Below the pieces are notes generated by a model. That model did no database searches. It was not told where the DNA came from and saw only the letters and a list, made by a program, of their open reading frames with translations. Both the position numbers and the translations under genes were made by a program. Positions 946 to 41,001 of a DNA stretch of 42,165 nt are shown here, piece by piece. The stretch covers positions 1-42,165 of the forward strand of contig CAZVUR010000001.1 in assembly GCA_964629385.1 (NCBI GenBank), in the 5' to 3' direction. Each line of letters begins with the position of its first letter. Position 1 is the first letter of the stretch. The DNA is from an uncultured Candidatus Saccharibacteria bacterium (GTDB lineage Bacteria; Patescibacteriota; Saccharimonadia; Saccharimonadales; Saccharimonadaceae).

Positions 946-1012
946 TTTCTTCAGGGGTGGATTTTAATAGAGTAATTCGCTATAATTGCTCATGCACTTT
1001 ACTTCATAGTAT

Positions 1013-1087
1013 TGGGGTGTCGCCAAGTGGTAAGGCACATGGTTTTGGTCCATGCATTCGGGGGTTCGAATCCCTCCACCCCAGCCA
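1013..1087 (+). tRNA. tRNA-Gln (anticodon UUG), CCA encoded
   Basis: Hand-folded cloverleaf: acceptor TGGGGTG/CACCCCA with U1:A72, G73-CCA, anticodon loop TTTTGGT, T-loop GGTTCGAATCC. Near-identical in outline to E. coli tRNA-Gln. Confidence 0.9.
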
Positions 1088-1108
1088 TGAGTCTTCGAAT
1101 AGACAGAT

Positions 1109-1145
1109 GCAGAGGTGAACACTTCGTTCACCTCTGTTATTTTTG
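1109..1145 (+). terminator. Intrinsic terminator after tRNA-Gln
   Basis: Hairpin GCAGAGGTGAAC-acttc-GTTCACCTCTG followed by TTATTTTT. Confidence 0.6.
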
Positions 1146-1963
1146 TGCAATCAGGGGTTCCAGAAACAATATCTGCGTAAGTTGGTGCTTTGTTAAATAT
1201 TAGCCCAAAATACTTCGCTTGTAGCACCGGATTACAGTGGTGAAGTAGTAGTTCATCCAGGTGTTCCAGAAAATATCTGACTCGTTGCATAATTTCCTCC
1301 ATATTGTTAGGTTTCTGTGGTTTTTGTACCTTTCTCTCGTCTTCGAGTTGTCTGATTTCAACTTCCAGTTTTGCAATATCCTCCTCCATATACTTGATTG
1401 CTGTTTCTGAGTTTAAGAACTTTATCTTATCGACTGATTGACGGATTTGACCGTACAGCTCAGTAAGGCGTAAATCTATGGCTACCGCAGTCGCATGTTC
1501 GGCTAGAAGTTGTTTATCAAAAGCCGTGCCGACTGCGCTCATGAGTGCATCAATGTAATCATCCGAGATGCGCAGATTCTTCACAAAGTTCTCAATCGTC
1601 GCGTCAAACTCCTTCTTTGTTTTGCGGAAATAGTGACCTCGATGATCGCAGTGATAAGCAGGATAGTAACCGCCGTGACGGCCGCGCGAGGCACTACCAT
1701 AAAGCGGTTTTTCGCACTCAGGACACATCACGATGCGCTTGTAAGGGAACTCCGAATTTTTTACGCCCTTATTAAGGAGATGTTCCGGTATCTTACGTCT
1801 GGTGATTGTAATTTCACTTCCACTCTCCGTAATTACAAACTTGTCTCGATTAGCTTTGTTCCATATCGATACAGAGATGAGGCCATCAAATTGGCAACGG
1901 ACTGGTTTGCCCTGCGTCCATTTCTCGGGATTAATGCCAGCGTACACAGGATTCTCAAAAGGC

Positions 1964-1992
1964 TTGATGTTTATACCCCTAGGGGGTATTAT
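1964..1992 (+). promoter_or_regulatory. csoR promoter with a CsoR-type operator in the spacer
   Basis: TTGATG (1964-1969), 17 nt, TATTAT (1987-1992). The spacer holds the GC palindrome ATACCCC-tag-GGGGTAT (1973-1989). The ATG at 1999 lies ~7 nt after the -10, suggesting a leaderless mRNA. Confidence 0.55.
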
Positions 1993-1998
1993 TGAAGT

Positions 1999-2268
1999 AT
2001 GAAGAAAGAGCTAAAGCCACGCGCGATTCGTCGTCTTAAGATTATCGAAGGTCAGATTCGCGGCCTGCAAAAAATGGTCGAAGAAGACAAGTACTGTATC
2101 GACATTATTACCCAGGCCTCGGCAATTAAAGAGGCACTATCCGGCGTCGAAGATTTATTGCTTGAGAATCACTTGAGTACCCATGTTATTCACCAGATTA
2201 AAAGCGGTGAGGATGCGCAGGCGACCGAAGAGATTCTAAAAGTATATAAATTGAAGCGAAAAAAATAA
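1999..2268 (+). CDS. csoR: CsoR/RcnR-family metal-sensing transcriptional repressor
   Basis: 89 aa with RRLKIIEGQIRGLQKMVEEDKYCIDIITQ...ENHLSTHV, the typical DUF156 architecture. Sits upstream of a P1B ATPase. Confidence 0.85.
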   Translation: MKKELKPRAIRRLKIIEGQIRGLQKMVEEDKYCIDIITQASAIKEALSGVEDLLLENHLSTHVIHQIKSGEDAQATEEILKVYKLKRKK

Positions 2269-2294
2269 GTATAGGGATTTAGGAGGGGTAAGAA

Positions 2295-4526
2295 ATGGCA
2301 AAGTACACATGTCCGATGCATCCAGACGTTACGAGCAATGAACCGGGTTTATGTCCGAAATGCAACATGAATCTTGTATCGGATGATGGCACAGAAGATA
2401 AAACCGACGATGATCATGGTCACAGCAACTCATCGGTCACAGCGCATAACAGCGTATACGCTTGTCCTATGCATCCAGATGTTACATCGGATAACCCAGG
2501 TATGTGTCCAAAGTGCCACATGGCACTCGAAAAGAAGAAGCAATCATCACATGCTCAGCACGACCATCATGACAAGCATGCTGGTCACAACCCAAACATG
2601 TTTAGGCAGAAGTTTTGGATTAGTTTGCTACTGACTATTCCGACATTGATATTTTCTCCGATGATACAGGGTTGGTTTGGGGTTAATCTGACATTTACTG
2701 GTAGTGAATATATCTCAGCAATCTTCGGCATCATTATATTCTTTTACGGTGGCATGGTGTTTCTAAAAAGTGCCAAAGCGGAGCTTGCGGCTCGACAGCC
2801 GGGTATGATGACACTGATTTCGATGGCGATAACAGTGGCGTTTGTCTATAGTACGCTCGTAACGCTCAAGCTCGTTAACGGCATGGACTTTTGGTGGGAA
2901 CTTGCCACACTGGTGACGATTATGTTGCTCGGACATTGGCTAGAAATGGCATCAGTGGAAAGTGCCCAGGGCGCACTCAACGAGCTTGCCAAACTGCTGC
3001 CTGATGAAGCGGAGCTGATCGAACATGGAAAAAGTCGCAAGGTCTCGGTAAGTCAGCTTAAGGTAGGTGATTCTGTATTGGTTCGCCCCGGCGCGCAGGT
3101 TCCGGTAGATGGAAAAGTCATCAAAGGTAGTTCTGAGGTTAACGAATCAATGCTAACCGGTGAATCAAAGCCGGTGAAGAAAACAGTCGGAGCTGAGGTT
3201 ATTGGTGGGACGATTAATGCAAATGGTGCTTTAACGATTGAAGTTACGAAAGTTGGCGGCGATACGACGCTGGCCGGCATTATGAAACTGGTTGAAGATG
3301 CCCAAACTAGCAAGTCAAAAACTCAAGTGCTGGCAGATAAAGCGGCCTTCTACCTGACATTTGTTGCGCTTGGTGCGGCACTCCTGACATGGATAGGCTG
3401 GTGGATGGCTGGTGCGTCGGCGGACTTTATTTTTGAACGAGTTGTCACCGTACTGGTAATTGCCTGTCCGCATGCGCTTGGTCTGGCTATTCCTCTCGTC
3501 ACGGCTATCTCTACGACACTCGCAGCGAAAAATGGGTTGCTGGTACGGGAACGTATGGCACTTGAATCGGCACGTAATATCGACGTCATACTATTTGATA
3601 AGACAGGCACGCTTACTAAGGGTGAGCAAGGCGTGGTTGGCATCCTCGCCAAAGACCAGAGCCGTACTTTGAGTATTGCTGCTGCACTTGAACGCGAATC
3701 AGAGCATCCGATTGCAAAAGCAATTTTCCAGTACGCACACGATCAAAATGTGCCGGAAACTCACACCACTGACTTTTCGGCACTTTCTGGCCGTGGTGTA
3801 CGAGCTAAAGTTGATGGCAAAACTGTGTATGTCGGCGGTCCGAGACTACTTGAAGAGTTGAAACTGAAGCTTGATAATGAATTACAAAAGGCAGCAGATG
3901 AAGCCTCAAACGACGGAAAAACAGTTGTGTATGTCGTCGAAAACGAGACCATTCTCGGTGCAATTATGCTAGCTGATGTTATCCGCGAAGAGTCCAAGGA
4001 GGCCGTTACTCGGCTGCACAGTATGGGCAAACGCGTTGCGATGCTAACAGGAGACAGTAAGGGCGTGGCGGCTTGGGTTGCCAAAGAACTCGGCATCAAA
4101 GAGTACTTCGCCGAAGTCCTGCCGGAGAATAAAGCCGAAACGGTCAAGAAGCTACAGGCTGATGGCAGTCGAGTTGCCATGGTTGGCGACGGCGTGAACG
4201 ATGCGCCTGCACTAACACAGGCAAATATAGGCATTGCGATTGGTGCTGGTACGGACGTGGCGATTGAGTCGGCAGGTATCGTGCTAGCGAGCAGCGACCC
4301 GCGCGGTGTGGCGAAGATAGTCACGCTTTCAAAAGCAACCTACCGTAAGATGCTGCAAAACCTTGCCTGGGCAACTGGTTACAATGCCCTCGCGATTCCA
4401 TTGGCCGCTGGCGTCACTTCGGCATTTGGTTTTGTCCTCTCGCCAGCATTAGGGGCAGTACTAATGTCACTTTCGACGATTATTGTTGCTATCAATGCTC
4501 AGTTCTTACGACGGATTAAATTATAA
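2295..4526 (+). CDS. copB: Heavy-metal (copper) translocating P1B-type ATPase, CPH-type with a His-rich N-terminus
   Basis: DKTGTLT, GDGVNDAP, TGES and a transmembrane CPH motif (VIACPHALGL). The N-terminus has two CPMHPDVTS..CPKC fingers and His-rich stretches. Confidence 0.9.
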   Translation: MAKYTCPMHPDVTSNEPGLCPKCNMNLVSDDGTEDKTDDDHGHSNSSVTAHNSVYACPMHPDVTSDNPGMCPKCHMALEKKKQSSHAQHDHHDKHAGHNPNMFRQKFWISLLLTIPTLIFSPMIQGWFGVNLTFTGSEYISAIFGIIIFFYGGMVFLKSAKAELAARQPGMMTLISMAITVAFVYSTLVTLKLVNGMDFWWELATLVTIMLLGHWLEMASVESAQGALNELAKLLPDEAELIEHGKSRKVSVSQLKVGDSVLVRPGAQVPVDGKVIKGSSEVNESMLTGESKPVKKTVGAEVIGGTINANGALTIEVTKVGGDTTLAGIMKLVEDAQTSKSKTQVLADKAAFYLTFVALGAALLTWIGWWMAGASADFIFERVVTVLVIACPHALGLAIPLVTAISTTLAAKNGLLVRERMALESARNIDVILFDKTGTLTKGEQGVVGILAKDQSRTLSIAAALERESEHPIAKAIFQYAHDQNVPETHTTDFSALSGRGVRAKVDGKTVYVGGPRLLEELKLKLDNELQKAADEASNDGKTVVYVVENETILGAIMLADVIREESKEAVTRLHSMGKRVAMLTGDSKGVAAWVAKELGIKEYFAEVLPENKAETVKKLQADGSRVAMVGDGVNDAPALTQANIGIAIGAGTDVAIESAGIVLASSDPRGVAKIVTLSKATYRKMLQNLAWATGYNALAIPLAAGVTSAFGFVLSPALGAVLMSLSTIIVAINAQFLRRIKL

Positions 4527-4537
4527 GGAGCTAACCC

Positions 4538-5488
4538 ATGCATAACCACGACGAACACGAACATCATCACCATCATCATAATACTGACACTGCTGATATT
4601 CCTGCCGACCGTATGGCCGTCTGTCCAGTAACAGGCGACGCAATCGATACAGCAGAAGCTGAAAAGCTTGGACATTTCAGGGACGTGGACGGCCAGCGAA
4701 TGTATTTGTGCTGCGATACATGTGTACAGCTGTTCGATAAAAATCCTGAGCAGTACGTAGATCATCATCTTGGCCACGAACATCACCGGCATATTCCGAC
4801 AACAGGCACACTTCGCTTGAAGGAAAAAGAACACCTGACAGATAATGTTTGGGCGTTTCGTTTCACTACCGACCAGCCGCTATCGTGGACACCGGGTCAA
4901 TTCATTCGTATTGAAATTCCTCATGACAACCCTGACGGTGAAGGCACTAAACGATGGTTCACTATCTCATCAACGCCACATGATGGCTTTATCCAAATCA
5001 CGACTCGTGTGACCGATACTTCGTTTAAGCGAGCATTAGCTGCTCTCGAAGTTGGCGAAAAAGTACAGCTCATCGAGCAGCCAGATGGCGATTTTGTCTG
5101 GAAAGAGAGCGATAAGCCGTTAATATTCGTCGCAGGAGGTATCGGGATTACACCATTTTACAGCATGCTGAGGGCGCAAGGTCATAGCAGGCTACCGGTA
5201 TCTGCTACGCTTATCTACAATGGACGAACAGAGGATTTACCATTTAAGACAGAGTTTGAAGAAGCAAGTAAGCGTCATCCGGAGTTTACCGTGCATTATA
5301 TTATCGGTGAGCCAGTTAGCATCGAAAAGCTGACTGAAATTGTACCAGCCATCAACACATCACAAGTTTATATTTCAGGCCCCGAATCAATGGTTGAGAC
5401 ACTCGGCAAACAGTTAGAAGACAATGGGTTGGCTAGCAATAATCTCCATCAAGATTTCTTTCCTCATTACAACGAAGCGAATTACTAG
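4538..5488 (+). CDS. His-rich/YHS metal-binding domain fused to a ferredoxin-NADP reductase-like flavoprotein
   Basis: N-terminal HEHHHHHH and a YHS-like CPVTGD...YLCCDTCVQLF. C-terminal RWFTISS (RxYS-like FAD motif) and GGIGITP (NAD(P) motif). Confidence 0.7.
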   Translation: MHNHDEHEHHHHHHNTDTADIPADRMAVCPVTGDAIDTAEAEKLGHFRDVDGQRMYLCCDTCVQLFDKNPEQYVDHHLGHEHHRHIPTTGTLRLKEKEHLTDNVWAFRFTTDQPLSWTPGQFIRIEIPHDNPDGEGTKRWFTISSTPHDGFIQITTRVTDTSFKRALAALEVGEKVQLIEQPDGDFVWKESDKPLIFVAGGIGITPFYSMLRAQGHSRLPVSATLIYNGRTEDLPFKTEFEEASKRHPEFTVHYIIGEPVSIEKLTEIVPAINTSQVYISGPESMVETLGKQLEDNGLASNNLHQDFFPHYNEANY

Positions 5489-5527
5489 AAATATGACACA
5501 TGGTGCTACTTACGGTAAAATAAAGAT

Positions 5528-5902
5528 ATGAAGAGAGTCTTCCGTGGAATTGTTTCGGTGTTCATGCTGACAGTGCTTAGCGTACTGTCGTTAGGTGTAC
5601 ACGCAGCCGCAGCACAGACGATGAACATGAAGCACTCGATGGGGGGTGCATCCCATCAGATGAGCTCATCTAGCTGTTTTACTGCATGCACGACAGCAAC
5701 ACTCCACAAGGAGGACATTCTCAAAGATAGTGAAAAGGATGAGGACGATGAGCTCCAGCCTCCGTTTTATGTCCAATTTCAAGCATCGCCCATGTTGGCT
5801 TCGGAGGAAATACATCGTCAAGAGGCAAAGTCTGCCATAGATCGAGAGCCACCTCCTGGCGGCGCACCTGCTTATATAGAGCTGGCTGTTTTTCGCGCCT
5901 GA
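5528..5902 (+). CDS. Secreted Met/His-rich hypothetical protein in the copper island
   Basis: Signal-peptide-like N-terminus (VFMLTVLSVLSLGVHAAAA) followed by QTMNMKHSMGGASHQM. No recognisable family. Confidence 0.45.
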   Translation: MKRVFRGIVSVFMLTVLSVLSLGVHAAAAQTMNMKHSMGGASHQMSSSSCFTACTTATLHKEDILKDSEKDEDDELQPPFYVQFQASPMLASEEIHRQEAKSAIDREPPPGGAPAYIELAVFRA

Positions 5903-5950
5903 GAATCACTATTTATGCATATTTGATAAATAGTTAACTTAGGAGTAACC

Positions 5951-6619
5951 ATGAACAATAAGAAATTCTTTACTATAATTGCTGCTGTGATTGTTTTGGC
6001 AGTCGGCGGTGCCGCACTGTATTACGGTCTACGTGGCGACACAACTGCGCCGAATAGTTCTGATATGTCCGGTATGAACCACTCTATGAACAATAGTGAC
6101 TCATTAGTTGACACGAGTAGTACTACTTACAAGCAGTACGCAGCTCTGACGGGAGAAGAATATGACCGGAACTTCATTGCTAATATGATTGTTCATCATG
6201 AGGGCGCTGTTAGTATGGCCGAACTTGCATTAGCCAATGCGAAACATCAGGAGTTTAAAGACATGGCAAATGACATCATCTCTGCTCAAAATGAAGAAAT
6301 TAGCCAGATGAAGTCATGGCAGCAGGCTTGGGGCTATCCATCATCAAGTGGGGATAATATGATGGATCACTCTGCAATGGGTATGATGAGTGAGATGTCC
6401 GGAATGGAAGACGCACTAAAAGGCAAAACTGGTGATGAATTCGATAAGGCGTTTATCGAGCAAATGGTTATGCACCATCAATCAGCGATAGACATGGCTG
6501 GACCTGGTGAAGAGAATGCCGAGCATGAAGAACTGGGAGATTTAACAAAAGCCATTGTCGTCGCGCAGACAAAAGAAATTAAACAAATGAAACAATGGCA
6601 GTCTGACTGGGGCTACTAA
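5951..6619 (+). CDS. DUF305 domain protein (two repeats), membrane anchored
   Basis: Two copies of FIxxMIxHHxxAxxMA (FIANMIVHHEGAVSMA, FIEQMVMHHQSAIDMA) and a ...QMKxWQxxWGY ending. Confidence 0.8.
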   Translation: MNNKKFFTIIAAVIVLAVGGAALYYGLRGDTTAPNSSDMSGMNHSMNNSDSLVDTSSTTYKQYAALTGEEYDRNFIANMIVHHEGAVSMAELALANAKHQEFKDMANDIISAQNEEISQMKSWQQAWGYPSSSGDNMMDHSAMGMMSEMSGMEDALKGKTGDEFDKAFIEQMVMHHQSAIDMAGPGEENAEHEELGDLTKAIVVAQTKEIKQMKQWQSDWGY

Positions 6620-7227
6620 TGAAACGAGCGCTAGTAGCAGGCTTTCTAGCTGTGGCTGCATTGGGTGTAGCGGGTTGGTTCTTATTCAAAGGCCAACCTG
6701 CGTCAACACCCAGAGAGGCCAACGGTAACGCTCAAAGGCAAGAACAGACCTCGAACCCGAACGAACATGACTTCTTTGATGTTGACTTTTCTCGAAAGAT
6801 GATTGTTCACCACCAGCAGGCCATAGAAATGACCGATGCGATACTGGTGACTTCAGCAAATCCAACGATTCGCGAGCTTGCTACTTCGATACGCCAGAAA
6901 CAGTCTGAAGCCGAGCAGCGGTATAAGGACTGGCTGAATGAGTGGGGTGAAACGTATACCAATTTATCGGACTTCCCACAAATGGACGGGCATGATATGT
7001 ATCCATCGTATCCGGGCTTAGTGCCCGCAGCGAGTATGAGTAAGCTTAAGTCTGCAGCGGGCACCGAAGCAGATGAGCTGTTCGTAAGCTTAATCACCGT
7101 ACACCATCAAGGCGGCATCGAGATAGGTGAAATGAGTAGGAAACTTCAGTACGGCAAGCTCATCGAATATAAGAATAAAGTCTTTAAAAGCTATCAAGAC
7201 GACCTTGATAGGCTCAAGTTGTTATAA
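6619..7227 (+). CDS. DUF305 domain protein
   Basis: FSRKMIVHHQQAIEMT and FVSLITVHHQGGIEIG motifs. Its start overlaps the previous stop codon. Confidence 0.75.
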   Translation: MKRALVAGFLAVAALGVAGWFLFKGQPASTPREANGNAQRQEQTSNPNEHDFFDVDFSRKMIVHHQQAIEMTDAILVTSANPTIRELATSIRQKQSEAEQRYKDWLNEWGETYTNLSDFPQMDGHDMYPSYPGLVPAASMSKLKSAAGTEADELFVSLITVHHQGGIEIGEMSRKLQYGKLIEYKNKVFKSYQDDLDRLKLL

Positions 7228-7237
7228 AGGAGCATGA

Positions 7238-7894
7238 ATGAAGATTAGTAGGAATAAGATATTCATAGTCATTGTGACTATACTAGCGATTGTTGCCGCA
7301 GCCATTTGGTATTTTGGTGTGTTTTCGATTAAGCCCGAGAAGGTCACTCCCGCTAACGATGCAGCAAAAACAAAGCAGACTAAGGAACAAGTTTCGGATA
7401 GTAAGTTTGCAACACTTACAGGCGATGCCTTTGATGAGGCCTTCATCGCTGATATGCTTGCTCATCACGATGGAGCAATCACTATGTCGGAGCAGGCACA
7501 AGCTATGACGGCACATGAGGAAATTAGAACTCTCGCCGGTAATATTACGCAAGCGCAATCAATGGAAATGATTCAAATGCGTGAATGGCAGCAAGCATGG
7601 GGCTTTAAGATCACGAATAGTGGCGGTCACATGAGTCATGGCGGAGGCGGAATGGAGATGGCGGGCGACATGGTTGAGATGCAAAACAAACTAAATGATT
7701 TAACTGGTGAAGCTTATGACAAGGAATTTCTTAAGCAAATGATCCTTCATCACGAGCAAGCCGTAGATATGGCTAAATATGCGGACAGTAATGCCAAGCG
7801 TCAAGAGATAAAAGACTTAGCCAGTGTCATCATTACGGCCCAAAAAGCAGAAATACAACAGATGAAACAGTGGCAAGATAGCTGGGGCTACTAG
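7238..7894 (+). CDS. DUF305 domain protein (two repeats), membrane anchored
   Basis: FIADMLAHHDGAITMS and FLKQMILHHEQAVDMA motifs. Ends QMKQWQDSWGY like the 5951 gene. Confidence 0.8.
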   Translation: MKISRNKIFIVIVTILAIVAAAIWYFGVFSIKPEKVTPANDAAKTKQTKEQVSDSKFATLTGDAFDEAFIADMLAHHDGAITMSEQAQAMTAHEEIRTLAGNITQAQSMEMIQMREWQQAWGFKITNSGGHMSHGGGGMEMAGDMVEMQNKLNDLTGEAYDKEFLKQMILHHEQAVDMAKYADSNAKRQEIKDLASVIITAQKAEIQQMKQWQDSWGY

Positions 7895-7897
7895 TAC

Positions 7898-8302
7898 ATG
7901 CATAACAAGAGTACGATCATATTTTTAGTAATTTTCTTGCTACTACTAGGGGCTATTGGTAGTGGTATTTGGACGGCGCTTAACAATCGTCAAGCTCAGC
8001 CAACTCATGACACGCAAACCTCCGATGAGGCCAAAGTGTTTACGCAAAATGAGGTTGCCGAACATGCGACAAAGGATGATTGCTGGACGATTATTTCTGG
8101 TGACGTATACGATCTGACAAAGTTCATCAACCGCCATCCTGGTGGTAATGAAATACTTCGAGCATGTGGTGTGGACGCTACTGATCTATTTAACTCTCGA
8201 ATGACTACCGCTGGCCAGCCTGTCGGCTCGGGTTCCCCGCACAGTCAAGTGGCACGCGAGCAGTTGGCGCAACTAAAAATTGGAGTATACAGTCAAGAAT
8301 AA
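7898..8302 (+). CDS. Membrane-anchored cytochrome b5-like heme-binding domain protein
   Basis: N-terminal TM helix, then EVAEHATKDDCWTIISGDVYDLTKFINRHPGG, which is the cyt b5 HPGG motif. Confidence 0.75.
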   Translation: MHNKSTIIFLVIFLLLLGAIGSGIWTALNNRQAQPTHDTQTSDEAKVFTQNEVAEHATKDDCWTIISGDVYDLTKFINRHPGGNEILRACGVDATDLFNSRMTTAGQPVGSGSPHSQVAREQLAQLKIGVYSQE

Positions 8303-8467
8303 TCAAGAAACAGTCAGCCTTAGCAGGTTTACGTCATCGTTTGCGGCAAAATAGAATAGTTTTGTGTCGTTATTGATTTTCATTACATATTTAATCTTTT
8401 TTAACAAAGTTTTAAAAATACGTAGTAGAATTTGCAATATTACCAAAAGTGTTACAAATACTCATGA

Positions 8468-8497
8468 GTTCGAAACACGTCCACTAGCCCCATACCA
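8468..8497 (+). repeat. tRNA-3'-end-like core repeat, copy 0 (diverged)
   Basis: GTTCGAAACACGTCCACTAGCCCCATACCA. Compare the tRNA-Gln 3' end GTTCGAATCCCTCCACCCCAGCCA and the other core copies. Confidence 0.6.
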
Positions 8498-8500
8498 TTA

Positions 8501-8532
8501 TTGACAAATAATACAACTTATGCTAATATAAT
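8501..8532 (+). promoter_or_regulatory. Near-consensus sigma70 promoter P1 driving GC-rich cassette 1
   Basis: TTGACA (8501-8506), 17 nt, TAATAT (8524-8529) with TG at 8521-8522. An alternative TATAAT lies at 8527-8532. Confidence 0.65.
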
Positions 8533-8595
8533 ATTGATGTCCTAGCTTTGGAATCCGAGATTTCTCCACTCGACAAGAGGAGGCGAGGAGTTAAC

Positions 8596-9039
8596 ATGAA
8601 CACGCAGACCCTGGTCGAGTTCGACCAGAGCCAGGCCCAGACCTACAACGCGCTCTACGTCGTGAAGCAGGCCGTTCTCGTTCCCGTCCCGGACGGCATC
8701 GAGACGGTCATCAACGCGGAGTGGGGCGAGGAGCAGAAGTTCGTCGGTGCCTGGTACGGCATCTACGTCGACGGCGCGATCGTCTACGGCTCCGCCAAGA
8801 AGGAGTTCGACGACAGCCACGGCAAGACCGACGAGCTCGAGAACGGGTACTTCAAGGACACGCCCATCAGCGCGTACCAGTACCACGGCCCGACCGCACG
8901 AGTCCAGACCGTCCTCGCGGACGGCACCGTCGAGACCGGGAACACCATCTCGGACGGCGACTGGCTCGTGAAGTGGCCGGCCGGCGAGGTCGGAGTCCTG
9001 AAGGACGACAACTTCCGCAAGCGCTACCAGGTCAACTGA
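8596..9039 (+). CDS. GC-rich foreign ORF 1a, hypothetical protein (147 aa)
   Basis: ATG at 8596 lies 5 nt after GAGGAG. G/C-dominated third codon positions. The C-terminal DGDWLVKWPAGEVGVL is weakly reminiscent of small phage-type PGDYG-like proteins (unverified). Confidence 0.7.
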   Translation: MNTQTLVEFDQSQAQTYNALYVVKQAVLVPVPDGIETVINAEWGEEQKFVGAWYGIYVDGAIVYGSAKKEFDDSHGKTDELENGYFKDTPISAYQYHGPTARVQTVLADGTVETGNTISDGDWLVKWPAGEVGVLKDDNFRKRYQVN

Positions 9040-9044
9040 TCCAC

Positions 9045-9185
9045 ATGAGGCGCAGGCTGAGGAGGATCAAGCACGGGATCTTCGGACACCCCCGCGAGGA
9101 CATGATCTTCGGCGACATGGTCGAAGGCAACACCTGCACGTCGTGTGGGTGGAACTTCAAGCGGGCCGACATCACCGTGGGCTGA
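9045..9185 (+). CDS. GC-rich foreign small ORF 1b (46 aa, CxxC)
   Basis: ATG lies 5 nt after the ORF 1a stop. Same G/C-rich third-position bias. Sequence MRRRLRRIKHGIFGHPREDMIFGDMVEGNTCTSCGWNFKRADITVG. Below the 60-aa track cutoff as a separate ORF. Confidence 0.5.
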   Translation: MRRRLRRIKHGIFGHPREDMIFGDMVEGNTCTSCGWNFKRADITVG

Positions 9186-9194
9186 CAACAACCC

Positions 9195-9298
9195 CAACTA
9201 CACCCTCAGGAGAGGAGAGCACCCGAGCATGGGAGCCCCTCGAATGAGGGTGCTTCCATATCTAAATGTTCCTGAAACACATCCACCAGCCCCAGCCA
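9195..9298 (+). repeat. Cassette 3' module M, copy A (GC-rich hairpin half plus AT-rich linker plus core copy 1 at 9268-9298)
   Basis: CAACTACACCCTCA...GGGAGCCCCTCGAATGAGGGTGCTTCC-ATATCTAAAT-GTTCCTGAAACACATCCACCAGCCCCAGCCA. Aligns with copies at 10073 and 10627. Confidence 0.8.
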
Positions 9299-9363
9299 AG
9301 CTTAAGTATTATAAATAGGCCTTTTGGGTCTATTTTGTTATTATCGTTTTAGTGAAAAATTTA

Positions 9364-9495
9364 ATGAACAAAAAGATCGCAAATCAATCCAAGCGTAATA
9401 TTCTTTTCCTATACATATTATTTTTTGTTGGAGTTCTGATTTTTCTTTACGCAATTTTTGTGACATTGCGATACGTTCTTACTGAATCTTGGTAG
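9364..9495 (+). CDS. Small hydrophobic peptide (43 aa), native AT-rich composition
   Basis: MNKKIANQSKRNILFLYILFFVGVLIFLYAIFVTLRYVLTESW. One TM helix. The stop lies 5 nt before core copy 2. No clear RBS was seen. Confidence 0.35.
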   Translation: MNKKIANQSKRNILFLYILFFVGVLIFLYAIFVTLRYVLTESW

Positions 9496-9500
9496 TATTC

Positions 9501-9530
9501 TTCCTGAAACACATCCACTAGCCCCAGCCA
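9501..9530 (+). repeat. tRNA-3'-end-like core repeat, copy 2
   Basis: TTCCTGAAACACATCCACTAGCCCCAGCCA. It is followed by AAGACGCTTATGGTTTAAAT, which matches the trailer after copy 5 (10923-10941). Confidence 0.8.
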
Positions 9531-9578
9531 AGACGCTTATGGTTTAAATACTTCATTCGGAAGTCTATTTGTTTATGC

Positions 9579-9608
9579 TTGCAATTCCTTATTATTAAAC
9601 GGTAATCT
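9579..9608 (+). promoter_or_regulatory. Sigma70-like promoter P2 driving GC-rich cassette 2
   Basis: TTGCAA (9579-9584), 18 nt, TAATCT (9603-9608). The composition jump at ~9617 coincides with the predicted +1. Confidence 0.5.
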
Positions 9609-9645
9609 ATATTTACACGTTCCACACCGAGCTAAGGAGAGTGCG

Positions 9646-10089
9646 ATGGACGTGAGTATCAAACCAGCAGATAAGCAGGCGCGTGAGGCAGTCATCAAGG
9701 CGCGCGAAGACAAGGAGGCTGCTCGGGTTGCGCGCAAAGAGAAGCGCAAGAAGCGGAAGGCCGAGAAGCGAGACCCGGTCGTTGCCAAACGGCTCAGGCG
9801 GCGGATCGAGAAAGAAGTTCTCGCTGATCTTCTCACCGAGAAGCGGTGCTACCTCAATGCTCAGCCTTCGACCGGCCAGTATGTGATCGACACGCGAATT
9901 CGCTACGGCTGGACGCTGAAGCGGAAGTGGCGTTACGACAAAGACACCGTCGAGCGAATCTTCCTGGAAGTGCTCGCAAGTCACAACGGTTTCGAGCACA
10001 AGGCCGACTACCGTTGTCAGGGCCCGTGGTGGTGTGTCCGAATCGATGTTCAGTACACCCTGCTGGACCACTCAAGTACACCCTCATGA
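9646..10089 (+). CDS. GC-rich foreign ORF 2, hypothetical (147 aa): Lys/Arg/Glu-rich N-terminal half, Trp/Cys-containing C-terminal domain
   Basis: ATG lies 6 nt after AAGGAGAG. G/C-rich third positions. The last codons and the TGA lie inside module M copy B. Confidence 0.7.
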   Translation: MDVSIKPADKQAREAVIKAREDKEAARVARKEKRKKRKAEKRDPVVAKRLRRRIEKEVLADLLTEKRCYLNAQPSTGQYVIDTRIRYGWTLKRKWRYDKDTVERIFLEVLASHNGFEHKADYRCQGPWWCVRIDVQYTLLDHSSTPS

Positions 10090-10172
10090 GAGGAGACGCG
10101 ACCAAGTTGGGAGCCCCTCGAATGAGGGTGCTTCCATATCTAAATGTTCCTGAAACACATCCACTATCCCCA
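10073..10172 (+). repeat. Cassette 3' module M, copy B (core copy 3 at 10146-10172, truncated before GCCA)
   Basis: Identical to copy A over GGGAGCCCCTCGAATGAGGGTGCTTCCATATCTAAATGTTCCTGAAACACATCCAC. Runs directly into promoter P3. Confidence 0.8.
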
Positions 10173-10188
10173 ATTGTGGGTTAGATGA

Positions 10189-10217
10189 TTGACATAATAT
10201 TATTTATTTGTTATAAT
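10189..10217 (+). promoter_or_regulatory. Consensus sigma70 promoter P3 driving GC-rich cassette 3
   Basis: TTGACA (10189-10194), 17 nt, TATAAT (10212-10217) with TG at 10209-10210. Confidence 0.75.
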
Positions 10218-10267
10218 ATATTTAAGACGTGACTTTCACGTCCGAACCGAGTGAGAAAGGCATTCAG

Positions 10268-10615
10268 ATGCCGAAGTACGCGTTCAACAGCAAGAAGATT
10301 GTCGACCTCGTCGACGAGGACGAGGACTTGGTCCGGATCCTGGACCAGAAGACGGTTCGGGCTGACAACGTCCAGATCAAGGGCTACCCGACCAAGATGG
10401 ACGGCCATCTCTACCCCGTCAACTTCGTGCTCACCACTTCGAGCTACTACTACGAGGTCTCCATCTACCTGGAGACCGCCGAGATCCAGAAGTGCGACAT
10501 CTCCAGCTCCAGCGTGATCGAGTCCGACGTGTTCACTGCGCTGGACGACTTCACCGAGAAGCTGATGGCAATCCTCGAGGAGGTCGAGTCCGCCGAGAAG
10601 ATCGCCGCCGTCTGA
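10268..10615 (+). CDS. GC-rich foreign ORF 3, acidic hypothetical protein (115 aa)
   Basis: ATG at 10268 lies after GAGAAAGG. 19 of the first 20 codons end in G/C (hand count). The track ORF begins at an upstream GTG (10229) that lacks an RBS. Confidence 0.7.
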   Translation: MPKYAFNSKKIVDLVDEDEDLVRILDQKTVRADNVQIKGYPTKMDGHLYPVNFVLTTSSYYYEVSIYLETAEIQKCDISSSSVIESDVFTALDDFTEKLMAILEEVESAEKIAAV

Positions 10616-10626
10616 ATCAGCTCGCT

Positions 10627-10733
10627 CAACTACACCCTCATGAAAGGACAAGCGCCTGCAACAATGGAGCTCCTCGATTGAGGGTGCTTCCATTTGTAAA
10701 TTCTTCCTGAAACACATCCACTAACCCCAGCCA
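10627..10733 (+). repeat. Cassette 3' module M, copy C (core copy 4 at 10704-10733)
   Basis: CAACTACACCCTCATGAAAGGA...GGAGCTCCTCGATTGAGGGTGCTTCC-ATTTGTAAATTC-TTCCTGAAACACATCCACTAACCCCAGCCA. The hairpin arms are preserved through C-to-T (G:U) changes. Confidence 0.8.
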
Positions 10734-10734
10734 T

Positions 10735-10768
10735 AGAAAAAGACTGAGCATCTGCTCGGTCTTTTTCT
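10735..10768. terminator. Strong bidirectional-looking hairpin terminator
   Basis: AGAAAAAGACTGAGC-atct-GCTCGGTCTTTTTCT, a ~15 bp stem flanked by an A-run and a T-run. Confidence 0.65.
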
Positions 10769-10769
10769 A

Positions 10770-10904
10770 TAACTCGGGCCGGGACTACGAGCCCCCGATG
10801 CTTTTGCAAAGCAAAAGTCGGGGAGTTCGGCGTAGCGCAGCGATGATAAGAAAGCACCGAAGGTATTTTCTTATCAAGCAAGCGGAGGAGGCCTCATGGC
10901 AGAT
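10770..10904 (+). other. GC-rich structured non-coding segment abutting the tRNA-Gln 3'-end repeat (probable element-side arm of an att junction)
   Basis: No credible ORF. Hairpins CCCCGA..GCTTTTGC-aaa-GCAAAAG..TCGGGG and GATAAGAAA-12 nt-TTTCTTATC. Confidence 0.4.
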
Positions 10905-10922
10905 ATCCCTCCACCCCAGCCA
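10905..10922 (+). repeat. Exact 18-nt direct repeat of the tRNA-Gln 3' end (core copy 5, putative attR)
   Basis: ATCCCTCCACCCCAGCCA is identical to 1070-1087. Confidence 0.85.
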
Positions 10923-10936
10923 AGATGCTTATGTTT

Positions 10937-10962
10937 AAAATGACGAGAAATCGTCATTTTTT
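10937..10962 (+). terminator. Intrinsic terminator, likely the displaced original tRNA trailer terminator
   Basis: AAAATGACGA-gaaa-TCGTCATTTT followed by TT. Confidence 0.6.
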
Positions 10963-10971
10963 ATTGCTAAA

Positions 10972-11388
10972 ATGATAAGTATGAAATCAGTCGCTAAGCT
11001 TTTAATCAAGAATGGTAATGAGTTTTTAATGATGTACAGGAGTGATCATCCAACCTTTGGTATTGACCCTGATCTACCTGGCGGAACAGTGGAAGGAAGC
11101 GAGACCGTACTTCAAACCATGCTGAGAGAAGTCTACGAGGAGATCGGTGTAGTAGTTGAATCAAGTAAAGCTAGTGAAATATTCTCAGGTAACGACTATT
11201 CGGCACATGGGACTTACTATTCTCTGTTTATTACAGAGGTCGAGGACAAACCAGAGATACGCATGAGCTGGGAGCACTCATCGTATGAGTGGCTCAAGGA
11301 GTCGGAGTTTATAGAAAAGGCGGCTAGCGCAAAAGATACCTATATGCACATGGTTAGTGAGGTTCTAGCGTCGTATTCAATGTCATAA
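10972..11388 (+). CDS. NUDIX hydrolase
   Basis: Nudix box GGTVEGSETVLQTMLREVYEEIGV. Native composition. The start may be the ATG at 10981. Confidence 0.8.
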   Translation: MISMKSVAKLLIKNGNEFLMMYRSDHPTFGIDPDLPGGTVEGSETVLQTMLREVYEEIGVVVESSKASEIFSGNDYSAHGTYYSLFITEVEDKPEIRMSWEHSSYEWLKESEFIEKAASAKDTYMHMVSEVLASYSMS

Positions 11389-11390
11389 TA

Positions 11391-11420
11391 TTCCTGAAAC
11401 ACATCCACTAGTTCCAGCCA
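11391..11420 (+). repeat. tRNA-3'-end-like core repeat, copy 6
   Basis: TTCCTGAAACACATCCACTAGTTCCAGCCA begins 2 nt after the NUDIX stop codon. Confidence 0.75.
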
Positions 11421-11435
11421 CGCTAAAGCATTACA

Positions 11436-11469
11436 AGTAAGTGCCAGAGAAATCCGGCACTTACTATTT
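11436..11469. terminator. Hairpin terminator between the convergent NUDIX and hsp20 genes
   Basis: AGTAAGTGCC-10 nt-GGCACTTACT followed by ATTT. Confidence 0.5.
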
Positions 11470-23649: not shown

Positions 23650-23652
23650 CTA

Positions 23653-23681
23653 TTGACACATTGTTTATTTAGCGGTAAAAT
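23653..23681 (+). promoter_or_regulatory. Sigma70 promoter P4 driving GC-rich unit 4
   Basis: TTGACA (23653-23658), 17 nt, TAAAAT (23676-23681). It starts 4 nt after the helicase stop codon. Confidence 0.7.
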
Positions 23682-23772
23682 ACTAGTGATTTTGAGAGTT
23701 GAGGCTCGTATTCTGTGCTGTACAATTTGAGGTAAAGCGTAGTATACGCGCCTCCTGTCAAAATCGAACTTT

Positions 23773-24316
23773 GACAGGATGGTGCCTTAGTGCGAACGGG
23801 CAGGGATCCGAGGACTCGTAACATTGTTCTCGCAGAAGATTCATTCTCTGTCCGTTCGACCAAACCTCCGGGCGTGGTGGGGCCCGAGACCCATTGCGCC
23901 CGGAGCCAAGTGCCCAGGCGGGCACGGTGCAAAACGAGGAGGGAGCAGCCGTCACACGCTGACAATTCTCGATGGAGGAACACCGTGTCCGCCTGTGGCC
24001 CATGCGAATGGCTACATGGCAGTGCTCCTTGTATCCGGGACTTCCGGAGCAAGCGTTCAATATACGACACCTTGAGAGGAGGTGATCGCATGGCAACCAC
24101 CGAGGAGACCAGGCAGGCCATCATGGCCGTCTCCAACGGCCAGGCCAGCAGGGAGCAGCAGGAGATCGCAAGGCGCGCGGCTCAGCAGGCTGGCTCCATG
24201 GGCAACAGTGCCCGGGAGGCCTTCAAGGGCAAGAAGTGAGCCAGCGAGGGCGATCATCTTCGCAGTGGGGGCGGGCTTACCCAGCCGCCCCCACCCGAGA
24301 CTGGTACCATCCTGTC
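23773..24316 (+). other. GC-rich cargo of unit 4, enclosed by a 14-bp long-range helix
   Basis: GACAGGATGGTGCC (23773-23786) is complementary to GGTACCATCCTGTC (24303-24316) with one G:U. It contains a ~300-nt structured leader plus a small ORF. Confidence 0.6.
24090..24239 (+). CDS. GC-rich foreign small ORF 4 (49 aa)
   Basis: ATG lies 5-6 nt after GAGAGGAGGTG. Sequence MATTEETRQAIMAVSNGQASREQQEIARRAAQQAGSMGNSAREAFKGKK with G/C-rich third positions. The in-frame upstream stretch from 23790 looks non-coding. Confidence 0.55.
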   Translation: MATTEETRQAIMAVSNGQASREQQEIARRAAQQAGSMGNSAREAFKGKK

Positions 24317-24365
24317 CGTCTCACATTACACATGAATTATTCGTGTGCAGCGTGAGACGTTTTTA
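24317..24365 (+). terminator. Intrinsic terminator of unit 4
   Basis: CGTCTCAC...GTGAGACG followed by TTTTT. The left arm GTCTCACATT is shared with the unit 5 terminator. Confidence 0.7.
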
Positions 24366-24394
24366 TTGACGATTCAAACTAAAAGTGATAAAAT
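24366..24394 (+). promoter_or_regulatory. Sigma70 promoter P5 driving GC-rich unit 5
   Basis: TTGACG (24366-24371), 17 nt, TAAAAT (24389-24394) with TG at 24386-24387. Confidence 0.7.
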
Positions 24395-24650
24395 CTATTT
24401 TACTTGGTCGAGTAGGCAACGAACATATCGAGTGATATGTTTTGAACGCGGTTTGTTCGTTGTCTATTCCTAAGTGTTTTTTAACAGGAATAGCGTACAA
24501 GAATTCACCGGGGTATCCCCGTTGCCTTGGTGAATGGGGTATCATTCTTCGCAGCGGCTTACGCAGTCTGCTCCGATAGTGGTCTGCAATGGCTTCTAGA
24601 GTGGAGAACGATACAGGGTGCTGAGTCCGGCTCGGCAAAGCACCCACCCG

Positions 24651-24723
24651 GGGGCGTTGGCGCAGATGGTAGCGCGCTCACCTAATACGTGAGAGGTCGC
24701 AGGTTCGAGCCCTGTGCGTCCCA
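24651..24723 (+). tRNA. GC-rich tRNA with anticodon AAU (formally Ile), CC but not CCA encoded
   Basis: Hand-folded canonical cloverleaf: GGGGCGT/GCGTCCC acceptor (two G:U), U8, GCGC/GCGC D-stem with G18G19, CTCAC/GTGAG anticodon stem, loop CTAATAC, T-loop TTCGAGC, discriminator A. Confidence 0.7.
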
Positions 24724-24795
24724 CCGGAACAAGCAGGCCGCAAAAGGAGTCGGCCGTCGTGCTTTCCTCGCTCGGTATGCACACTTGTTCCATCC

Positions 24796-24834
24796 GGGAC
24801 CGGAGGCTTCGCACATACCGTTGCCTCCGGTCCC
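24796..24834 (+). other. 12-bp perfect GC hairpin downstream of the GC-rich tRNA (high-GC-style terminator or processing hairpin)
   Basis: GGGACCGGAGGC-15 nt-GCCTCCGGTCCC with no T-run. Confidence 0.5.
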
Positions 24835-24985
24835 GCCCCACCCAAAGCTTCTCATTTATCGGCGCCAACCACCTGTTTAGTGGCGCGACGATAACTAGGA
24901 GGGGAGACCCCGGGCCCTTCTCTGTTTGCCGCTGCGCGGGAACGGTCCGGGGAACTTCCCTTGCTCTAAGACGCTATTCCTGTGT

Positions 24986-40675: not shown

Positions 40676-40749
40676 ATAATTATACCTGTCATCGCACCCG
40701 CATGCAGGCCGATCAATCTGTCTTCGCTGAAGACAGAAGGGAGCACCAA

Positions 40750-41001
40750 ATGAACCGCATCGTCAACGTCGCGACCGTCGTGGTCGGAGGCATCGTCGCC
40801 ATCAAGATCGCGAAGGAGGTCAAGGACTTCATCGTGTTCGACGCCGGCTCGACCGAGAACCGCCGCTACCGGAAGTTCTACAAGGAGATCTCCCGGGCGG
40901 CCAACAAGATGAAGAACGTGTCGGTGGAAGAGCTGATGGAGCTGCTGCGTGGTGAGGAGCTCACGCCCCAGGTGGCCGGCTCCGACCGCAACGCCATGTA
41001 G
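40750..41001 (+). CDS. GC-rich foreign ORF 6 (83 aa), N-terminal TM helix
   Basis: ATG lies 6 nt after AAGGGAG. Sequence MNRIVNVATVVVGGIVAIKIAKEV... with G/C-rich third positions. The upstream ATG at 40702 lies in a leader hairpin without an RBS. Confidence 0.65.
   Translation: MNRIVNVATVVVGGIVAIKIAKEVKDFIVFDAGSTENRRYRKFYKEISRAANKMKNVSVEELMELLRGEELTPQVAGSDRNAM

Follow-up and report, generated by a model that had tools for sequence, protein, structure and literature searches.

Positions 8467-11420 of a 42,165-nucleotide (nt) stretch of DNA from an uncultured Candidatus Saccharibacteria bacterium (contig CAZVUR010000001.1; the whole stretch is called the window below) hold six small gene-sized units downstream of a tRNA-Gln gene, delimited by copies of a 30-nt repeat. 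The reading that we prefer, for which the scales stand about level, is that of a tRNA-Gln-anchored attachment-site array of small, self-contained expression cassettes, including a mobile GC-rich class of phage type. A cassette consists of one or two small open reading frames (ORFs) under a sigma-70-type promoter, with a Shine-Dalgarno sequence in a short leader, and is closed by the 30-nt repeat, after which there is usually an intrinsic terminator. According to this model, the repeat would act as the attachment site: a site-specific recombinase whose gene lies elsewhere would insert cassettes serially at the tRNA-Gln 3' end, the crossover falling near the junction of ...CCCCA and GCCA. Three of the six units (C1, C3 and C4) belong to a separate GC-rich class, widespread in Saccharibacteria; its members would travel between Saccharibacteria on mobile elements and encode small, lineage-restricted proteins of phage type, probably acting in phage/host conflict. 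The build of the array, its conservation, the modular nature of the cassettes, the spread of homologues and the base composition are observed directly, whereas how recombination proceeds, which enzyme performs it, what the hairpin does and how the proteins function are inferred.

The repeat, TTCCTGAAACACATCCACTAGCCCCAGCCA, is like the 3' end of a tRNA-Gln but does not match it. It has in common with the resident tRNA-Gln its last 8-9 nt only (CCCAGCCA), and its core, ATCCACTAGCCCCAGCCA, differs from all resident tRNA-Gln 3' ends, which read ATCCCTC(CAC/ATC/CGC/CAT)CCCAGCCA; the resident tRNA-Gln of the window ends in ATCCCTCCACCCCAGCCA. The 18-nt core of the repeat is matched four times in the window, against 0.02 matches expected by chance. 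In the Saccharibacteria loci that carry the repeat, the stop codon of the upstream gene lies 1-13 nt 5' of it, and each repeat follows a different gene. The genes are diverse (NUDIX, HIT, acetyltransferase, pilin-like and small membrane proteins) and with few exceptions have native GC content; NUDIX genes recur as cassettes in other arrays. An earlier interpretation made from the window alone (the original prediction) had recognized three GC-rich cassettes sharing a 3' module; that the repeat also closes cassettes of native GC content, namely those of a 43-amino-acid (aa) ORF (repeat at 9501) and of a NUDIX gene (repeat at 11391), had gone unnoticed, as had a degenerate copy in front of C1 (8467-8495). 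Because the repeat ends these two AT-rich or native units as well, the array comprises six units rather than three: it is wider than first described, and its delimiter is the pseudo-tRNA-Gln 3' end.

The same arrangement is found in relatives. One genome per species was scanned for the first 18 nt of the repeat, which gave 69 loci. About 34 of them belong to Saccharibacteria metagenome-assembled genomes (MAGs), where the whole 30 nt is conserved and nearly invariant; the loci in other phyla fit chance, given that they show no likeness outside the 18-mer and that about 17 chance matches are expected. In all of the loci whose sequence includes a tRNA-Gln gene (20/20), the repeat is co-oriented with that gene and downstream of it, and the arrays of Saccharibacteria contain one to six copies. 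About 34 nt are conserved, up to and including CCA, and 6 of 68 copies diverge exactly after ...CCCCA, a candidate crossover point. None of the 23 genuine tRNA-Gln genes among the Saccharibacteria loci examined contains the repeat sequence. In the viral contigs of IMG/VR, the repeat and the hairpin module described below are absent, and three matches to the 18-mer are due to chance and lie inside coding sequence. Several other identities for the repeat were considered and rejected: a genuine 3' end of some Saccharibacteria tRNA-Gln (23/23 genes differ), a tRNA-like fold formed together with the module (the acceptor partner is missing), a dif/Xer site (the dyad symmetry is lacking), a DNA-uptake sequence (it is found at one locus only) and a retroelement primer-binding site (it mismatches the resident tRNA).

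Homologous cassettes occur among different neighbours, which agrees with the original view of a cassette system with conserved flanks rather than random debris of horizontal transfer. Cassette C3 (9506-10172) is 78% identical to a cassette in L077 (loci are referred to by L numbers) from repeat to repeat, with different genes on either side, and L033 and L037 have one cassette in common (89%) with homology ending inside the repeat. Cassette C1 (8518-9264) matches L085 and L079 at 74-75% and also matches L102; these three represent different genomic contexts, L085 being placed after a tRNA-Ser without the Gln repeat. Near-consensus promoters had been assigned to all three GC-rich cassettes, an assignment that holds for P3 and P1 and fails for P2, which is weak, although the P2 sequence is conserved in the L077 homologue of C3. 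In the Saccharibacteria loci with the repeat, no more than a few bases separate a promoter from the preceding repeat or its terminator. The leaders do resemble one another, as claimed, but over a short stretch (ACGT..TCC[A/G]A[C]ACCGAG, shared by C3 and C4); a (G/A)CACCGAG box akin to this motif is present in the family-A leaders of other genomes.

The tRNA-Gln locus also bears traces of larger elements. In the window, a truncated large serine recombinase, which retains the recombinase and zinc-ribbon part without the catalytic domain, reads antisense through the tRNA-Gln gene at its 3' end. It is followed by a copper-resistance block with a CsoR-like repressor, a CopA P-type ATPase, a YHS/FNR-like protein, three DUF305 proteins and a cytochrome b5. 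The recombinase probably belongs to this copper-resistance element, and the whole of 964-8302 appears to be a decayed integrative element, which now lies between the tRNA gene and the array. Inside the array, element X is a conserved non-coding sequence of about 190 nt. It combines a bidirectional terminator with a long hairpin (CGAACCCCCGA..GCTTTTGC-aaa-GCAAAAG..TCGGGGGTTCG), in which compensatory changes are seen from one locus to another, and with a tRNA-Gln-3'-like end whose T-loop is interrupted by about 75 nt. The element is found directly after tRNA-Gln in L021 and L037, and after a repeat in L055, L018, L031 and L057. Element X looks like a non-autonomous mini-element targeting tRNA-Gln; alternatively, it is possibly an RNA gene of unknown type. 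The sequence that follows it in the window (10923-10962) marks the ancestral tRNA-Gln 3' flank. Rfam searches of the window (gathering and E-value thresholds) returned two tRNAs only and otherwise noise. In L057, about 85 nt inserted into the T-loop disrupt a second tRNA-Gln copy (6850-7000, minus strand), and extra CGAATCCCTCCATCCCAGCCA fragments follow the intact tRNA gene and a distant repeat (6700-6735 and 3130-3160); both observations point to recombination whose breakpoints lay in the T-loop. In L076, positions 10263-10990 hold a tRNA-Glu(CTC), a GC-rich hairpin cassette, a pseudo-3' end of tRNA-Glu (TTCGATTCaataaaGGTCACCA) and a terminator, so that the phenomenon is not restricted to tRNA-Gln.

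Such traces are what would be expected if the array were the debris of larger elements or prophages that entered serially at tRNA-Gln, each decayed to its attR-proximal last gene and its attachment repeat, with no cassette mechanism involved. The truncated recombinase abutting the tRNA gene, the exact 18-nt tRNA 3' duplicate at 10905, element X, the disrupted tRNA-Gln copies in L057 and the tRNA-Glu pseudo-3' end in L076 all speak for that origin, and tycheposons are known islands with partial tRNAs and decayed elements. On the other hand, the 30-nt repeat is unlike every resident tRNA-Gln and yet nearly invariant across genera. The units, 232-806 bp long, are clean single genes; their promoters are intact and their stop codons lie 1-13 nt from the repeat. 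Neither fragments of integrases nor remnants of pseudogenes lie between the repeats, and independent decay is not expected to yield the same layout repeatedly. Debris therefore seems to us an unlikely origin.

The abrupt changes in composition on which the original prediction was built are borne out. The three GC-rich blocks contain 62.3% (8541-9257), 58.2% (9617-10135) and 57.0% (10227-10691) GC, against 29.9, 31.1 and 18.0% in the AT-rich spacers around them and 46.8% for the whole window; a recount again gave 37/60 G+C in 8761-8820 versus 13/60 in 8401-8460, and G or C at the third position in 19 of the first 20 codons of the ORF starting at 10268. For the neighbouring NUDIX gene, the earlier count of 10/20 codons ending in G or C has to be corrected to 8-9/20. 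GC contents at the first, second and third codon positions are.61/.36/.96 in the 147-aa ORF of C1 and.53/.29/.94 in the 115-aa ORF of C4, which is the signature of true coding sequence of the high-GC type; the corresponding values are.62/.41/.70 for the C3 ORF and.47/.36/.46 for the native NUDIX gene. In the C4 region, public gene calls on identical contigs give a 160-aa ORF on the opposite strand (10211-10717, minus). Its codon-position profile of.80/.31/.50 compares poorly with that of the plus-strand frame, so that the 115-aa ORF is favoured, and genes of this class are probably mis-annotated in databases.

Junctions of this kind could in principle be produced by a chimeric assembly that fuses DNA of low-GC and high-GC organisms. 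The switches in composition are indeed abrupt, and some short contigs (L093, L095) stop within the repeated module; nevertheless, contigs from at least seven assemblies of different samples are 99.9-100% identical through every AT/GC junction, and the same architecture is present on unrelated Saccharibacteria contigs of up to 973 kb, which makes a chimera practically negligible as an explanation. The short-read contigs of the window population (L093 and L095) tend to end inside the hairpin and repeat, and such arrays will often be fragmented or missing in MAGs.

GC-rich hairpin cassettes are found in at least 12 other Saccharibacteria loci. They have a common layout, in which an AT-rich TTGACA/TATAAT promoter and a leader typical of the family precede an ORF whose GC content at third codon positions (GC3) is 0.65-0.95, followed by a hairpin; they adjoin tRNA-Gln, tRNA-Glu or tRNA-Ser or sit within a serine-recombinase element. 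The latter is exemplified by L104 (2699-10806), where an intact large-serine-recombinase element occupies the 5' end of ychF on a Saccharibacteria-type contig of 47% GC. The cargo of this element includes AAA_25, ThsB-TIR and SLATT defence genes, a PGDYG gene and a family-A cassette (family A being that of the C1 ORF) with its hairpin; two further GC-rich genes, which code for secreted proteins, each have a consensus AT-rich promoter. The cassettes remain GC-rich in genomes of 42-57% GC, and family-A genes contain 61-68% GC where the genome has 47-57%. Among conserved residues, 32-50% of the four-fold-degenerate sites differ between copies, which is near saturation, and the GC content at four-fold sites is still 0.82-0.94 in most copies (0.63-0.70 in L086). 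The AT-rich promoter and the leader are homologous between copies of the class. Near-saturated four-fold sites that keep a high GC content, together with homologous AT-rich promoters and leaders, indicate that the contrast has been maintained over a long divergence and does not stem from one recent transfer. The GC richness of this class is thus an inherited and maintained property and not the trace of a recent transfer from a host.

That conclusion bears on the idea, put forward as unproven in the original prediction and taken here in the sense of a recent transfer, that the GC-rich ORFs came from a high-GC actinobacterial host or its phages and were wired to promoters of the symbiont. GC3 values of 0.94-0.96 are typical of high-GC organisms, a family-A domain is present in viral contigs of 64% GC, a stretch of the hairpin in L078 and L080 agrees at 12/13 positions with the start-associated sequence of Cluster K mycobacteriophages, and L104 carries further GC-rich secreted-protein genes under consensus promoters. 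The distribution of homologues goes against the idea, in the very respect that the original prediction had named as decisive. Families A and B (the C1 and C3 ORFs) have 30 and 9 homologue clusters, all metagenomic, and the homologues that were named or fetched are all from Saccharibacteria and none from actinobacteria; the close ones lie on Saccharibacteria-type contigs, and wherever their DNA was read they have the same high GC content in low-GC genomes, behind AT-rich promoters and leaders that are homologous as well. With 37-45% identity, the viral domain stands as an outgroup. A tblastn search of C1, C3 and C4 against 50,697 phage records gave one marginal match, to a Xanthomonas phage; no actinophage match was found for the proteins or for the module. 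Among 241 million metagenome records, the pattern of the module was found in low-GC contexts only, and in IMG/VR not at all. The near-saturation of synonymous sites between copies leaves no room for a single recent event. Recent host transfer is thereby largely refuted, and we regard it as very improbable.

The predicted structure of family A is confidently all-beta (predicted local distance difference test, pLDDT, 90.8), and the model matches uncharacterized phage proteins (TM-score of about 0.6, E = 5e-6), with partial PGDYG-like matches. A profile search gave 274 relatives, in many of which family A is one domain inside giant proteins of 1.4-7.6 thousand residues (1413-7635 aa). Homologue P0054, for example, combines Phage_Mu_F, an ADP-ribosyltransferase toxin domain, SAP/HeH domains and family A, and in the 64%-GC viral contigs (L097) the domain, with 42-44% identity, lies within a 1600-aa ORF; this viral copy is the outgroup to all Saccharibacteria copies. 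Polyvalent or MuF-type phage proteins thus carry family A as a module of a giant protein, while the protein of the window stands alone: it has the domain in common with them but is not a member of their family. A distant phage origin of family A is plausible, and from these domain associations we infer that it may be a phage-type conflict domain. The 46-aa ORF-b of C1 is fused to family A in P0010, P0020 and P0022. For family B, a long basic helix and a small alpha/beta domain are predicted (pLDDT 84.6). A homologue search with the plus-strand C4 ORF found none, probably because public gene calls use the antisense frame.

The original prediction had also proposed a shared 3' module of about 100 nt. 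Three copies do exist in the window, with 63-97% identity, and the module resolves into a 66-nt hairpin and the 30-nt repeat. The hairpin (CACCCTCA...GAGAGGAG...GGAGCCCCTCGA-N-TGAGGGTG-CTTCCAT) occurs after GC-rich ORFs only; its fold has a free energy of -29.9 kcal/mol and a z-score of -4.1, and in a set of 13 sequences 94% of the positions pair. The diverged copy in L101 has compensatory changes in its stem arms. A pattern search gave nine genuine metagenomic loci, none from IMG/VR and none in a high-GC context; further copies were reached through protein homologues (L085, L101, L102/L104), and a blastn search of the module against the 50,697 phage records returned nothing. The hairpin is probably a terminator or a stabilizer of the mRNA 3' end. 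Its interior (9213-9260, 10091-10138, 10645-10694 and other loci) contains a Shine-Dalgarno-like GAGAGGAG, followed in 9/14 copies by an ATG. The mini-ORF so defined, MEPL[E/D]*, ends in a TGA that overlaps a second start, A/T/C-TG, as in the ATGA coupling motif. This second start opens a short, non-conserved frame (MRVLPY...), which indels break in other copies, and a conserved small ORF within the module was rejected on account of these indels. In Cluster K mycobacteriophages, a 13-nt start-associated sequence (SAS), GGGATAGGAGCCC, lies 3-7 nt 5' of the start codon, and an extended SAS (ESAS), a pair of 17-nt inverted repeats, lies just upstream of the SAS (PMC3203893). The hairpins of L078 and L080 match the SAS with a 5-nt gap to the ATG and a following frame that is not conserved, and those of the window match it at 7-10/13 positions. 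In Cluster K phage TM4 both arms are upstream of the SAS, whereas the arms of the Saccharibacteria hairpin enclose the SAS-like stretch. Membership of the ESAS group was rejected, the TM4 arms (GTTGACACCTCAACAG type) being unrelated in sequence, and the resemblance to the SAS is judged from sequence to be partial.

The repeat and the hairpin could also be RNA elements of the 3' untranslated region that serve processing, stability or termination and mimic a tRNA 3' end, with arrays arising by duplication or ordinary recombination, e.g. after natural transformation. In keeping with such a role, the repeat is always co-oriented with the upstream gene, begins 1-13 nt past the stop codon and is followed by a terminator, single changes in the hairpin stem are compatible with G-U pairing on the plus strand, and a moderately U-rich tract 3' of the hairpin is clear in L101 and L076. 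However, the 30-nt repeat itself has no predicted structure or pairing partner, and it is confined to the tRNA-Gln locus, the copies of the window being found in this array only. Homology between genomes breaks at the repeat, and the copies truncated after CCCCA resemble DNA junctions. An origin as RNA elements seems to us quite improbable.

The interpretation as an attachment-site array of cassettes has its own difficulties. The consensus of the repeat does not show the dyad symmetry usual in recombinase sites, and a census by Pfam of 127 ORFs at 35 loci, restricted to those that start with ATG, have at least 200 aa and lie within about 8 kb, found no recurrent integrase family near the arrays. 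The window itself has no integrase gene near its array, and the serine-recombinase fragment has no relative in the other repeat-bearing loci. Neither a circular cassette nor an empty site nor variation within the population was seen, all assemblies of the window population being identical. Covariation in the hairpin is slight, few compensatory changes being observed because the sequence is so highly conserved, and the role given to the hairpin is a guess. Among the GC-rich ORFs, searches with Pfam, PHROGs and PADLOC gave weak matches, for C1 only, to PHROGs of unknown function; a fold search of families A and B against the PDB gave no significant match; and the reading does not account for the upkeep of GC richness in these ORFs. 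All these points count against the reading that we prefer. A bolder version of it, to which we give a tentative and rather doubtful place, is that the repeat could be the recombination site of an unrecognized, integron-like gene-capture platform across Saccharibacteria with a distant recombinase, and that the hairpin cassettes could be mobile, phage-derived conflict genes whose G/C-ending codons are kept by selection. A still more speculative extension of this version, in which the cassettes would stay GC-rich because they are tuned for expression in, or against, the high-GC host, is given very little credence. Table 1 lists the features of the window.

Table 1. Features of the tRNA-Gln locus and of the cassette array in the window.
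Feature	Positions	Strand	Remarks
Truncated large serine recombinase	964-1947	-	phrog_95 integrase, 2.4e-11; Zn_ribbon_recom weak
tRNA-Gln(TTG), island anchor	1013-1087	+	last 18 nt duplicated at 10905-10922
r0, degenerate repeat copy GTTCGAAACACGTCCACTAGCCCCAtacc	8467-8495	+	left border of cassette C1
Promoter P1, TTGACA-17-TAATAT	8501-8529	+	10/12, TG-extended
C1 ORF-a, family A, 147 aa	8596-9039	+	GC3 0.96; all-beta
C1 ORF-b, 46 aa, Cys-containing	9045-9185	+	conserved beside family A (L085)
Hairpin module M1 (CACCCTCA...GGAGCCCCTCGAATGAGGGTG + CTTCCATATC)	9197-9262	+	-29.9 kcal/mol, z -4.1
r1, repeat, 1 mismatch	9269-9298	+	then terminator 9313-9335
C2 ORF, 43 aa, hydrophobic	9364-9495	+	native low GC (31%)
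r2, repeat, exact consensus	9501-9530	+	3' flank and hairpin resemble those downstream of genuine tRNA-Gln genes
P2, weak promoter-like site, TTGCAA-18-TAATCT	9579-9608	+	~7/12; not listed by promoter scan
C3 ORF, family B, 147 aa	9646-10089	+	GC3 0.70; stop codon within module M3
Hairpin module M3	10075-10140	+	
r3, repeat truncated right after ...CCCCA	10147-10172	+	promoter P3 directly 3'
Promoter P3, TTGACA-17-TATAAT	10189-10217	+	12/12, TG-extended
C4 ORF, 115 aa, acidic	10268-10615	+	GC3 0.94; no detectable homologue
Hairpin module M4	10629-10696	+	more divergent copy
r4, repeat, 1 mismatch	10704-10733	+	
Element X, non-coding	10734-10922	+	ends with exact 18-nt tRNA-Gln 3' copy (10905-10922)
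Canonical flank and terminator	10923-10962	+	as downstream of genuine Saccharibacteria tRNA-Gln genes
C6, NUDIX hydrolase cassette	10972-11388	+	native GC
r5, repeat, 2 mismatches	11391-11420	+	2 nt past NUDIX stop; terminator ~11435-11469

A second compositionally foreign zone of the window (23650-24900) has the same design as the GC-rich cassettes. A TTGACA-17-TAAAAT promoter precedes about 400 nt of GC-rich and apparently non-coding DNA, a 49-aa GC-rich ORF (24091-24239) has a GC hairpin terminator, and a promoter at about 24367 leads to a GC-rich 'tRNA-Ile(AAT)' (24651-24725) in which CCA is not encoded. The zone has no Rfam match, no hairpin module and no Gln repeat. Another GC-rich patch lies at about 40700-40850.

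No description of such an array was found in the searched literature. It looks like an undescribed gene-capture site whose closest analogues are integron arrays, tycheposon-like tRNA islands and phage morons. With integrons and with clusters of attC sites lacking integron integrases (CALINs) it has in common co-oriented, mostly single-ORF units with a conserved 3' sequence that resembles a recombination site, a content that varies between genomes, and cassettes of which some deviate in composition from the host genome. In its GC-rich class there is also an imperfect hairpin after the ORF, with conserved outer arms, a variable tip and a stop codon that is sometimes inside. The differences are equally clear. 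An intI gene adjoins the integron array (although this is not required of a CALIN), and the Saccharibacteria array has none adjacent to it. An attC site consists of inverted repeats with RYYYAAC/GTTRRRY boxes, whereas the 30-nt repeat, read directly, is asymmetric and has no GTTRRRY box, and the hairpin arms CACCCTCA/TGAGGGTG are present in GC-rich cassettes only, unlike attC, which is found on every integron cassette. Finally, integron arrays are anchored at attI and their cassettes are mostly promoterless and expressed from the common promoter Pc, whereas the array described here is anchored at a tRNA gene and its cassettes carry their own promoters and terminators.

Tycheposons of Prochlorococcus are integrative islands that target tRNA genes (bioRxiv 10.1101/2020.12.28.424599). 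Islands of this kind are seeded at a tRNA 3' end, have insertions split by partial-tRNA repeats and decayed integrases, use serine or tyrosine recombinases, and carry adaptive or conflict cargo, all of which are likenesses. As in tycheposons, the window has an exact 18-nt tRNA-Gln duplicate (10905-10922), and the array is downstream of the tRNA gene and co-oriented with it in 20/20 loci. Tycheposons encode an integrase; the window has a truncated large serine recombinase only, none was found in the other arrays, and the intact serine-recombinase element of L104, which carries the same GC-rich cassette class, is at a different target gene. The repeats of tycheposons are segments of the resident tRNA, whereas the Saccharibacteria repeat is a distinct sequence conserved across genera, and the Saccharibacteria units are single genes of 0.2-0.8 kb without integrases. 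Phage morons are likewise autonomous units of promoter, ORF and terminator, deviating in composition and lying between other genes, but they sit in prophages, and genes for phage structure or replication are absent from the island; further differences are the arrangement as an array, delimited by repeats, beside a tRNA gene and the presence of one conserved 3' hairpin behind unrelated ORFs. The Xer/dif modules (integrative mobile elements exploiting Xer, IMEX, and the pdif modules of Acinetobacter plasmids) are also small, with short conserved sites and a recombinase that is not part of the module, but a Xer/dif site is 28-31 nt long with inverted 11-nt arms and a 6-8-nt spacer, a symmetry that the 30-nt repeat lacks. 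At the tyrT locus of Escherichia coli, 178-bp repeats downstream of the tRNA gene carry the 3' end of tRNA-Tyr, with small ORFs between them; these are tandem duplications of one unit and not an array of different genes common to many species.

The mobile DNA of Saccharibacteria, ultra-small epibionts whose genomes are reduced, is poorly known. If the interpretation as an attachment-site array is true, a conserved hotspot of exchangeable, promoter-equipped single-gene cassettes at one tRNA gene would be a main route by which these bacteria acquire accessory and conflict genes. The GC-rich class, with a GC3 of about 0.9 in genomes of 42-57% GC and with synonymous sites near saturation, offers a clean test of selection versus mutation bias on base composition, and the repeat, the consensus promoters and the hairpin may serve as parts for genetic tools, providing an insertion site and expression cassettes in bacteria that are hard to manipulate.

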